Positions 28,514 to 45,792 of a DNA stretch of 56,502 nt are shown piece after piece. Source of the stretch: a virus (Duplodnaviria > Caudoviricetes); the IMG/VR virus record IMGVR_UViG_3300047476_001839, positions 1 to 56,502 of that record. One strand, written 5' to 3'. Position 1 is the stretch's first letter. Each line of letters opens with the position of its first letter. Below the pieces are notes generated by a model, which saw only the letters and a program-made list of their open reading frames with translations, was not told the origin of the DNA and did not search any database. Position numbers and translations under genes: made by a program.

Positions 28514-28984
28514 ATGTCAAGATATGATGTTTACATTCCGTTCATTGCTTCTTACAAGGGTGAACCATACGAAGAAGAGTTTAGCACGATAGTCAAAGCT
28601 GAGAATGAAAAAGATGCTCTTGAAGAAGCATTGAAAGAATTGCATAGCGAATATGTTGTCAAAACAATCGAGAGTGATGACATTACTATTGAAGAGATTC
28701 CAACCTTTCCTTCTTTCGATGAGTGGGAGGAAAAGTTCACTGCTCTTAAAAACCCACACGCACAAGAAGGTGAGCAGGGCTTGGGAGAGATTATGTTTGA
28801 TACTGATGGTGACCAGTATCAAACAGTCAGAGGTTTCGACTCAAGCAAAATCTGGACTATTCGTAGCACTGAATATGGCTTGATGCTTACGGCAGGTTTG
28901 GGATTTGTAGATAGGTTTGGATACATCTTGTCGGAACAGTCTTTTACTGAAGAAGATAAAGAGAAAGCATTCATCATTGACTAG
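28514..28984 (+). CDS. hypothetical protein
   Basis: AGGAG SD, own -10 element. Confidence 0.75.
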   Translation: MSRYDVYIPFIASYKGEPYEEEFSTIVKAENEKDALEEALKELHSEYVVKTIESDDITIEEIPTFPSFDEWEEKFTALKNPHAQEGEQGLGEIMFDTDGDQYQTVRGFDSSKIWTIRSTEYGLMLTAGLGFVDRFGYILSEQSFTEEDKEKAFIID

Positions 28985-37178: not shown

Positions 37179-37240
37179 AATAAATTTAATTTGACATATA
37201 TCATTAACTACCATATACTGTTGTTGTAAGGAGTTAGGAA

Positions 37241-37555: not shown

Positions 37556-38005
37556 ATGTCAACACACGCACGAATTGGCTTGATGCTTCATGATGGGACA
37601 ATCAAGCACTCTTATGTTCATTTCGATGGTTACCCTGAAGGTGTAGGTGAAACACTGGTAATGCATTATAATGATATTGAGAAAATTGAAGAGCTGTTAA
37701 GTTTTGGTGATATGTCTACACTTCAACCAAACATTCATCCTCAAGGTACACATACTTTTGAAAAAAGAGAAGATGGTGTTTGCTTATTCTATAACAGAGA
37801 CCGTGGCGAAACCAATGTCGATGCAGTAGTTTCTTCTATGGATGAATTACACAGCATATACTATAACAGTGTAGATTATTATTACCTGTATAGTGGTGGT
37901 AATTGGTTTGTTAAGAATGTCATCGAAAATGAAGGATGGGACAGAGTAGAGAAGTTTCTGCCTGCATATACCTTGACAGAAGAAGATTACGCCTGTACTA
38001 TATAG
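37556..38005 (+). CDS. hypothetical phage protein
   Basis: MSTHARIG..YVHFDGYPEGVG..GDMSTL..YNRDRGE. Confidence 0.8.
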   Translation: MSTHARIGLMLHDGTIKHSYVHFDGYPEGVGETLVMHYNDIEKIEELLSFGDMSTLQPNIHPQGTHTFEKREDGVCLFYNRDRGETNVDAVVSSMDELHSIYYNSVDYYYLYSGGNWFVKNVIENEGWDRVEKFLPAYTLTEEDYACTI

Positions 38006-38057
38006 ACGTTCATACTGTTTCCTTATCATCCCTCTAATGAAAATTAGGGGGATTTTT
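38005..38057 (+). ncRNA. putative anti-RBS small RNA
   Basis: TTGACA-N17-TACTAT promoter, then reverse complement of AAGGAAACAGTATG, then terminator. Confidence 0.45.
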
Positions 38058-38120
38058 ATTAAGAACGAATAAATCTTAAAAAAATCTATAGATTTTTTTA
38101 GAATATAGTTTTAGTTAATA
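38057..38120. repeat. 64-bp dyad element, copy 14
   Basis: Consensus match. Confidence 0.92.
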
Positions 38121-38131
38121 AAAAATAGTTC

Positions 38132-38160
38132 TTGACATATGTCATTATATGGCTTATACT
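38132..38160 (+). promoter_or_regulatory. sigma70-type early promoter with palindromic TGACATATGTCA
   Basis: TTGACA-N17-TATACT; representative of many in 8.4-50 kb. Confidence 0.8.
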
Positions 38161-38166
38161 TACTCT

Positions 38167-38442
38167 ATGAACGAATACCAAGGCTACAAAAACAAAGCCA
38201 CAATGTTAGTAAGTAAGAATTTTGTTCCACGTATTGAACGAATGTTAAATCAACGTGTTAGTGGACAGCCTCTTCCTGAAGGTGCAATTCGACGACATCT
38301 TTTGCTTGCATCATATGAACTTGATAAACTCCCTGTAATTTTTCAAGAACTGTTGCTGGCTACTTGGGCGGAAATTGATTGGGATACATTGTTCGCAGAA
38401 GCAAGAAAAAATAATGAAGAAAAGGCTTGCACTGCTGAGTAA
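38167..38442 (+). CDS. hypothetical protein (paralog of 49609)
   Basis: Leaderless; MNEYQGYKNKAT..IDWDTL. Confidence 0.75.
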   Translation: MNEYQGYKNKATMLVSKNFVPRIERMLNQRVSGQPLPEGAIRRHLLLASYELDKLPVIFQELLLATWAEIDWDTLFAEARKNNEEKACTAE

Positions 38443-38459
38443 TATGGCGTAATATATTG

Positions 38460-38805
38460 ATGTGAGGTTGGAGTCGAGAACCAGCCTCATACAGTGAGAG
38501 TCCTAAACGGCTAGAATCTATTGCGAGATTCAAATAAGGGTAGCAACCTTGGAGTAGTTAAATCTACAATCTCTTACTGATTCCTTGGCAGGGACTGACG
38601 CAAACAGTTATGTCAAGGCAAATGATTTGTGGTTAGATACTATGCTCTCATTTGAGACACGGGTATCATCGAAGGCAGAGACCATCGAAAGAACTGCTAA
38701 TTTCATCTAGTGAAAACTAGGTGTGGATTGAAATCGTACTGGTTGAACTCCAGCTAACCACGAGTCCATTAAAAACCCCCTAAGACTTTTCTTGGGGGTT
38801 TTTTT
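38460..38805 (+). ncRNA. large (~310 nt plus terminator) structured non-coding RNA of unknown family
   Basis: TTGCAC-N17-TAATAT promoter; no ORF in track; at least 10 stems including long-range CAGTGAGAG/CTCTTACTG and GTGGTTAG/CTAACCAC; own terminator. Confidence 0.7.
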
Positions 38806-38868
38806 ATTAACAACGAATAAATCATAAAAAATTCTATAGAATTTTTTAGAATATATTTTTCGTTAATA
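38805..38868. repeat. 64-bp dyad element, copy 15
   Basis: Consensus match. Confidence 0.92.
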
Positions 38869-38914
38869 AATAAATTTATTTGACATATATCAGAATATGC
38901 CCTATACTTACTCT

Positions 38915-39133
38915 ATGAAACTTGAACAGGTCTTACCAATGCTTCGTGATGGTAAATGCATCTCAAGAGAAAAGCCACAACAAAACGGTGGGGCTTTGAT
39001 TTTATTTGTAAGAATGTTGAATGAAAAATTGCATTTCATGTTCATTGCATCAACTGGAGAACAAATTTCATGGTCATATTACACACTTAAAACTGATGAT
39101 GTAATGGCAGAAAATTGGGAGGTAGTAGAATGA
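38915..39133 (+). CDS. Tad2/DUF2829-like protein
   Basis: MKLEQVLPMLRDGKCISR...DDVMAENWEVVE. Confidence 0.6.
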   Translation: MKLEQVLPMLRDGKCISREKPQQNGGALILFVRMLNEKLHFMFIASTGEQISWSYYTLKTDDVMAENWEVVE

Positions 39134-39781: not shown

Positions 39782-39808
39782 CTGAATCCCTCAGAAATGA
39801 GGGATTTT

Positions 39809-39872
39809 TATTAACAACGAATAAATCATAAAAAATTCTATAGAATTTTTTAGAATATATTTTTACTTAATA
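39809..39872. repeat. 64-bp dyad element, copy 16
   Basis: Consensus match. Confidence 0.92.
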
Positions 39873-39932
39873 AATTTATTTTCTTGACATACCATGAAAT
39901 ATGTCATATACTTGATGAGTAAGGAGTTTAGC

Positions 39933-45685: not shown

Positions 45686-45792
45686 GGCTATATATTACGA
45701 CATATGTCATACGATTGCAAGTTTATTTACGTAATAAGTATTAACTATTATTTTCTTGACAAACAGATCTTTATGTGGTAGCTATGAAAATT

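Follow-up and report, generated by a model that had tools for sequence, protein, structure and literature searches.

A predicted modular, stand-alone structured RNA gene without a counterpart in Rfam 15 in uncultured T4-related giant phages

RNAC and RNAD of the T4-type phages were non-coding RNAs with roles still unknown according to PMC3014915 and PMC9697503, and the latter source classed both as late RNAs. ROOL and GOLLD were presented in PMC12286853 as phage-associated RNAs that formed homo-oligomers. A set of 8,495 candidate structured RNAs of 29–151 nucleotides (nt) was reported from IMG/VR by Fremin, Bhatt and Kyrpides 2023 (PMC10690425); that study drew on the same data source and, like the present analysis, judged phage intergenic DNA by covariation, and given their length range its candidates may include at most fragments of the RNA described below. 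The sequence analyzed here was IMG/VR virus record IMGVR_UViG_3300047476_001839, whose whole stretch of 56,502 nt is referred to as the window, and the element under study was a structured non-coding RNA (ncRNA) gene predicted on its plus strand (Table 1). As judged from sequence, this element was very probably a genuine stand-alone gene for a conserved, modular and structured ncRNA, and the family to which it belongs is uncatalogued. It was compared with three groups of described RNAs: (i) RNAC and RNAD, which are much shorter and are transcribed from the transfer RNA (tRNA) region, while this gene lay outside both tRNA clusters of the window; (ii) ROOL and GOLLD, which are likewise large, intricately folded, phage-associated and without known function, but whose models gave no match and which are about twice as large as this RNA or more; and (iii) transfer-messenger RNA (tmRNA) and YrlA, in which a structured RNA is joined to a tRNA-like module, an arrangement also found in one relative (locus L105), while this RNA had no tag open reading frame (ORF), the phage records had no Ro/TROVE gene, and domain 2 of the RNA was not matched by the tRNA model.

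The RNA family was absent from Rfam 15. All 4227 models were applied, membership being taken as a score at or above the gathering threshold of the family: the whole window gave eight matches, all of them tRNAs outside the RNA gene, and at E ≤ 10 the region 38300–38950 gave 16 weak matches, all leaning on the terminator or the intergenic dyad, the best of which reached 22.3 bits where the cut-off was 40. Inside the RNA, the 16 homologous loci searched (12 plus 4, the 12 at E ≤ 1) gave no match except for the tRNA-derived tail of L105. ROOL (RF03087) and GOLLD (RF01998) gave no match at E ≤ 10 or at the gathering threshold. The tRNA model gave no match to domain 2, either in the window region (E ≤ 10) or in the 12 loci (E ≤ 1), and ARAGORN found no tRNA within the RNA of the window or of related loci. 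The original prediction had recognized no tmRNA, RNase P or group I/II core, and neither Rfam nor ARAGORN matched the RNA; for tmRNA, in addition to these two negatives, there was no conserved ORF and no tag ORF. None of 4 phage records contained the Ro/TROVE gene (PF05731), whereas 2 of 14 reference genomes, searched as a control, did; the RNA thus had neither the TROVE gene nor the Rfam match by which a Y RNA or YrlA would be recognized, although a host-encoded Ro is possible. In 50,697 phage records, blastn with the RNA as query detected no similar sequence, T4 RNAC and RNAD included, and a text search of the literature found no description of the family, a word search being unable to find an unnamed sequence family.

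The RNA had been described in the original prediction as an ORF-free stretch. The longest plus-strand ORF within 38460–38775 was of 41 amino acids (aa) (TTG start, 38585..38710), and the longest ORFs of 19 homologues disagreed in frame, place and length, so that no ORF and no frame was conserved; the window and its relative L003 differed by 1-nt indels, and indels were not multiples of three. The plus strand folded with a minimum free energy of −120.6 kcal/mol, compared with −87.0 ± 5.1 for its shuffles (z −6.59; 0 of 100 shuffles as good), while the minus strand gave z −2.75. G-U pairs occupied 91 of 1503 cells and would turn into A-C mismatches in the opposite strand; their retention on one strand fixed the strand and pointed to selection on RNA rather than DNA.

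The homologues were collected in several steps. With the upstream 91-aa ORF as query, IMG/VR relative L003 and three metagenome contigs (L012–L014; amino acid identity 98%, 54% and 54%) were retrieved. Covariance model R1, built from the window and L003, scored 320, 260 and 117 bits on these three contigs, the 117-bit copy being cut by the contig end; with the upstream ORF down to 54% identity and the RNA still at 260 bits, the RNA was kept far better. Pattern scans then gave the following: (i) an initial 16-mer from J1, for which three of four loci were chance matches; (ii) an invariant 17-mer of domain 2, with 16 loci in IMG/VR, all 16 true homologues (208–336 bits), and 49 loci in the genome collection, none true; (iii) an invariant core 17-mer, with 30 loci in IMG/VR (16 known contigs, seven new homologues and seven chance matches falling in coding DNA) and 18 loci in the genome collection, of which one (L140) was true; and (iv) a looser core pattern, which gave no new contig, 21 of 21 being already known. 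The resulting 27 related loci comprised 23 IMG/VR contigs (up to 358 kb), three metagenome contigs and one small contig from a metagenome-assembled genome (MAG), and together with the window the family counted 28 loci and 22 distinct cores. Exactly one copy was present in each of five large records (129–358 kb, ≤89% complete) under both the full-length and the core models. The core was 76–94% identical to that of the window at the nucleotide level, versus 66–72% for the adjacent phrog_1987 gene, and 142 of 335 alignment columns were invariant, loops and junctions among them.

Covariation was measured in a main alignment of 19 copies (17 distinct), which was guided by the model and hence leaned towards it, with 89 pairs tested. 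Standard pairs filled 95.1% of cells, versus 35–43% when the partners were slid by 1–3 columns; both-side changes were found in 31 of 89 pairs, versus 3–8 when slid (17 distinct rows), and the covariation score was 0.261 versus 0.05–0.06. Independent alignment of 17 sequences by MAFFT followed by RNAalifold returned the same helices minus P1 and one 3-bp helix, with 24 of 70 pairs compensatory, and a MAFFT alignment of the 22 distinct cores had 96.6% of cells paired and both-side changes in 17 of 42 pairs, versus 1–4 when slid. The abundance of compensatory changes among the collected homologues, together with the lack of an Rfam match and of a conserved short ORF, bore out the earlier proposal of a large, undescribed, independently transcribed phage ncRNA.

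Table 1. Coordinates of the RNA gene, its predicted helices and loops, and its flanking signals in the window
Feature	Position	Strand	Details
Structured ncRNA gene	38461-38806	+	~300-345 nt
Promoter	38427..38455	+	TTGCAC (38427-38432)-N17-TAATAT (38450-38455); overlaps last codons of upstream ORF
P1, variable 5' hairpin	38461..38491	+	TGTGAGGTTGG/CCAGCCTCATA
Core domain 1	38492..38579	+	four-way junction with three hairpins
P2	38492-38500/38571-38579	+	both-side changes in 4/9 pairs
J1, conserved	38501-38513	+	
P2a	38514-38519/38526-38531	+	loop ATTGCG 38520-38525; both-side changes in 5/6 pairs
P2b	38535-38539/38547-38551	+	invariant loop GTAGCAA 38540-38546
P2c	38554-38557/38564-38567	+	both-side changes in 2/4 pairs
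P3, core hairpin	38583..38618	+	CCTTGGCA/TGTCAAGG + GACTG/CAGTT; loop ACGCAAA 38598-38604
Candidate kissing loop	38521..38525 with 38599-38603	+	TTGCG (P2a loop) with CGCAA (P3 loop)
Domain 2	38624..38766	+	second four-way junction
P4	38624-38635/38755-38766	+	12-bp closing stem of domain 2; both-side changes in 4/12 pairs
P5	38636-38649/38654-38667	+	both-side changes in 5/12 pairs
P6	38670-38672/38734-38736 plus 38674-38678/38694-38698	+	
Inserted hairpin	38699..38733	+	CATCTAG 38704-38710/CTAGGTG 38717-38723; 3' side of P6
P7	38739-38742/38750-38753	+	7-nt T-loop-like loop TTGAACT (TTGAANT), beside 3' strand of P4
Intrinsic terminator	38775..38806	+	9-pair stem 38777-38798, then T run
Long intergenic dyad	14758-49949, e.g. 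38044-38130, 38792-38880, 39796-39885		TATTAAC..AAAAAATTCTATAGAATTTTTT..GTTAATA

The fold supported by these helices consisted of a variable 5′ hairpin (P1), a core composed of domain 1 plus hairpin P3, and domain 2. Both of the multi-way junction domains that had been read earlier by eye were confirmed. At the level of single stems, 9 of the 13 originally listed were kept across the family (17–22 distinct sequences): compensatory changes were found in TGTGAGGTTGG/CCAGCCTCATA, CAGTGAGAG/CTCTTACTG, GAATCT/AGATTC, GTAG/CTAC, GTGGTTAG/CTAACCAC, GATAC/GTATC and TCTC/GAGA, GCAG/CTGC covaried once, and AAGG/CCTT and CTGG/CCAG were invariant. Two stems proved wrong, TCCT/AGGG and TGAC/GTCA, in place of which the family kept the covarying alternative that forms P3, and one, CATCTAG/CTAGGTG, was real in the window as an inserted hairpin but absent from the other 24 aligned copies, which had about 8 nt at that place.

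P1 differed among copies in length and register, with both-side changes in 6 of 11 pairs and 78% of cells paired, and it was absent in L102. P2, P2a and P2b had 99.5–100% of cells paired in the MAFFT alignment of 22 distinct cores. P3 had both-side changes in 5 of 13 pairs; the P3 of L102 differed in sequence and displayed the same loop motif. A kissing loop probably joins the P2a arm and the P3 hairpin: all five of its pairs were standard in 22 of 22 cores, and one pair was C-G in 20 cores, U-A in L102 and U-G in L037. In domain 2, the P6 pair 38672/38734 was G-C, U-A or A-U depending on the copy, and the 15-nt P6 loop AGACCATCGAAAGAA (equal to AGACCAUCGAAAGAA; 38679–38693) was invariant in 19 copies. 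Since L2b was invariant also in L102 and L105, both of which had no domain 2, its partner should lie outside domain 2. Several further pairings were considered: (i) a pseudoknot of AGUCCU (J1) with GGGACU (P3), seen by eye, needed a shifted register in the diverged clade, competed with covarying P3 and was dropped; and (ii) candidate tertiary pairings L2b–J1, L2b–P5 internal loop, L7–P2a 3′ strand and CUUGUGUU–P5 3′ strand involved segments that were invariant or non-universal. When the invariant loops were scanned for antisense targets in the window, the best was one 11-mer at 28711, which was not significant, about 0.35 such matches being expected by chance.

The homologues displayed modular variation around a constant unit, the 127-nt core (four-way junction plus hairpin P3), which was nearly invariant: (i) L102 contained only domain 1 and P3, placed between a promoter and a Shine-Dalgarno sequence with ATG, and domain 2 was missing; (ii) L105 shared its core exactly with L028 and contained P1, and its domain 2 was replaced by a tRNA-derived domain with a 12-bp closing stem and both D and T arms, for which the tRNA model gave 28.5 bits (cut-off 29; E 0.0075); and (iii) L110 and L123 harbored a 137-nt insert between P3 and domain 2 (L123:784–915), which L118 probably shares, its start being visible there. 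The insert of L123 folded no better than its shuffles (z −0.89). The core was kept in all variants and the 3′ domain was swapped or missing, so that the core was the constant unit and the 3′ domain the exchangeable one.

The gene was bounded by its own signals in most copies. The promoter, present as originally proposed, agreed with 7 of 12 consensus positions, short of the 9 of 12 required by the consensus scanner, which left it out; in 18 of 19 copies, L037 being the exception, an equivalent TTG(A/C/T)NN-N17-TAWTAT/TATCAT box was equally far from P1, and its spacer was often alike among copies (AGAGATG..GTAATAT). The predicted transcription start was at about 38461–38463. The DNA upstream of the box varied, being the 91-aa ORF, a phrog_1987 gene with the −35 box in its last codons, or non-coding DNA, and the initial view of the RNA as the 3′ end of an upstream transcript was reversed by the retention of the box in these differing contexts. 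The terminator followed by the dyad was also found as described, the dyad lying at 38805–38880, and a near-identical terminator hairpin (CCCCTAAGAaTTTTCTTGGGGG) occurred in most copies after a linker of 2–70 nt. With promoter and terminator kept across most homologues, the locus had the predicted layout of a sigma-70-type stand-alone RNA gene. In L037, the most diverged copy, the RNA had no promoter of its own; a TTGACA promoter and then about 250 nt of other non-coding DNA preceded it. The 255 nt upstream of this copy folded no better than shuffles (z −1.75) and may be another RNA module. The non-coding stretch at L037:931–1190 (minus strand) contained a T-arm-like GGTTCGATTCC, where ARAGORN and Rfam found nothing. 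As a separate observation, the pattern TTGCA-N15-19-GTAWTATAT, taken from the RNA promoter, had two matches in the window versus 0.04 expected, the other site being 45690–45720 (minus strand).

The window itself reads as a piece of an uncultured T4-related giant phage: both rIIA and rIIB were encoded, rIIA being at most 36% identical to its best cultured relatives, and the 56.5-kb window, a single IMG/VR virus record, had a CheckV completeness of 16%. A blastn search with 7.9 kb around the RNA gene gave no relevant match. Eight tRNA genes (Rfam 15 and ARAGORN) formed clusters at 23.1–24.8 kb and 31.7–32.8 kb, and no tRNA lay within 700 nt of the RNA in 15 related loci, the nearest in the window being 5.7 kb away. 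Many small genes each had their own promoter and terminator, with about 20 long dyad copies between them; dyad family D2 counted 21 copies, each sitting after a terminator and before the next TTGACA promoter, so that every small gene, the RNA gene included, was a bounded cassette. Within the searches made, members of the family occurred in a single clade only, that of uncultured T4-related giant phages with rIIA and rIIB. The sole copy from the genome collection, L140, was on contig DORI01000184.1 (4326 nt), binned with a Crocinitomicaceae MAG; this is a weak host hint, and mis-binning is likely because the sigma-70 type TTGACA/TATAAT promoters found in these phages do not agree well with a Crocinitomicaceae host.

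The neighbors of the RNA gene were small cassettes whose order was shuffled among phages. Directly downstream, 38915–39133 encoded a Tad2-like (Thoeris anti-defence 2) protein (PF11195; E 1.2e-5; 26.2 bits, cut-off 25), and a homologue was found within a few kb of the RNA, on either side, in 4 of 4 large contexts. A phrog_1987 gene (37556–38005) was located one cassette away in the window, and its homologue was directly upstream of the RNA in about 9 of 22 contigs; its protein had no Pfam or PDB match and was listed in the Atlas as a ‘T4-like’ hypothetical. A functional coupling of the RNA with this protein was considered and rejected in view of the shuffled cassettes, the arrangement being read as old (ancestral) synteny rather than a complex. 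The 3′ end of the phrog_1987 gene contained a promoter-like TTGACA-N17-TACTAT (37973–38001; 10 of 12), at the exact place occupied by the RNA promoter in relatives, which suggests that the 91-aa cassette (38132–38442) was inserted between the phrog_1987 gene and the RNA. The cassettes flanking the RNA displayed, at 38132–38169 and 38880–38917, TTGACA-N17-TATACT, next TACTCT and then ATG about 7 nt past the −10 box; this pattern had two matches in the window versus 0 expected, and the closeness of the start codon to the −10 box points to predicted leaderless mRNAs. The probable starts of the flanking ORFs are thus 38167 and 38915 rather than the ATGs further upstream that gene callers chose, while the promoters at 37191 and 39884 had normal leaders with Shine-Dalgarno sequences.

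As for mechanism, the core would be the working part, a folded RNA binding a conserved partner via its invariant loops and junction, and the 3′ domain would be a tRNA-shaped handle serving stability, processing or the recruitment of tRNA-handling factors. The term tRNA-shaped is applied to domain 2 by analogy with the swap in L105. We infer early expression from the host-type promoter and from the place among small accessory cassettes, one of them Tad2-like. A putative role in host take-over or counter-defence, suggested by the Tad2-like neighbor and by the shuffled small accessory cassettes around the gene, is offered tentatively. Several points weigh against this interpretation as a whole: (i) domain 2 was recognized neither by the tRNA model, in the window and in the 12 loci, nor by ARAGORN; (ii) the invariant 15-nt loop argues that domain 2 is more than a generic handle; (iii) the family is small and its sequences closely related, so that many both-side changes trace back to a small number of events, the shuffle control exaggerates significance, and cell counts exaggerate how many events were independent; (iv) the kissing loop had one compensatory change and one wobble behind it; (v) there was no terminator between the RNA and the next gene in L102, L036/L038 and L037, so that a role in cis is conceivable; and (vi) the Tad2-like neighborhood counts as weak evidence because the cassettes are shuffled.

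Among the alternatives, a tRNA mimic would have its 3′ domain cut by RNase P or RNase Z or provided with CCA, or would titrate tRNA-directed defence nucleases, with the core as cargo or regulator. The tRNA-model score and D and T arms of the L105 swap domain fit such an RNA, as do the 7-nt T-loop-like loop of domain 2 adjoining the 3′ strand of its closing stem and an ACCA directly past that stem in some copies. The same stem spans 12–13 bp instead of 7, though, ACCA was limited to a minority of copies, the window not among them, both tRNA finders were silent on domain 2, and the part common to all variants was the core rather than the tail, which together make the mimic unlikely.

The missing terminators in L036/L038 and L037, and the lone core of L102 lying without one between promoter and Shine-Dalgarno/ATG, would suit a cis-acting element, either a ligand- or protein-sensing leader (a riboswitch-like aptamer) or a 3′-untranslated region controlling the neighbor gene. 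A four-way junction with a kissing loop and a size of 127 nt are also typical of aptamer domains. Such an element is nevertheless quite improbable, given that most copies had their own terminator and the next gene had its own promoter, that the flanking genes varied between phages on both sides, and that no riboswitch family matched.

A ribozyme, or a self-assembling RNA-only particle such as ROOL or GOLLD, would account for the invariance of loops and junctions and for an RNA better kept than the neighbor genes, and the loop-loop pairing could act between molecules too; yet no ribozyme, ROOL or GOLLD model matched, no sequence feature indicating a cleavage site was found, and the RNA is much shorter than ROOL and GOLLD, so this reading is very unlikely. 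That the region is no RNA gene of a new kind at all is barely credible and largely refuted, whether it is taken for the remnant of a protein gene, for a signal in the DNA such as a recombination joint, or for a diverged member of a known family (RNase P, tmRNA, group I intron or Y RNA): it does lie between repeated DNA dyads at cassette joints, and a short J1 string resembles, by eye, conserved regions of RNase P, a likeness that no model supported, but there was no conserved ORF, indels ignored the triplet, the G-U pairs were one-stranded and accompanied by compensatory changes, and neither an Rfam or ARAGORN match nor, in the four phage records, a TROVE/Ro gene was found.

Large conserved structured RNAs of unknown function are rare and have repeatedly been a source of new biochemistry. 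The stand-alone RNA gene favored here offers a clean case, with strong covariation and a core kept better than nearby protein genes, and its place is in the accessory region, which in giant phages houses counter-defence genes. Its natural domain-swap variants (core alone, core with a tRNA-derived tail and core with an insert) already mark the functional unit, and its small size (core 127 nt, full length about 290 nt) suits chemical probing, cryo-electron microscopy and pull-downs. A bolder and, as a whole, rather unlikely extension would make the core an autonomous module (aptamer, catalytic or protein-capturing) plugged onto interchangeable tRNA-shaped handles, by which the host tRNA machinery would process, stabilize or deliver it, that is, a new class of modular RNA effectors of early take-over or counter-defence. 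Should the tail indeed serve as a handle of this kind, for delivery or for processing, the family would illustrate the way in which phages package RNA effectors.

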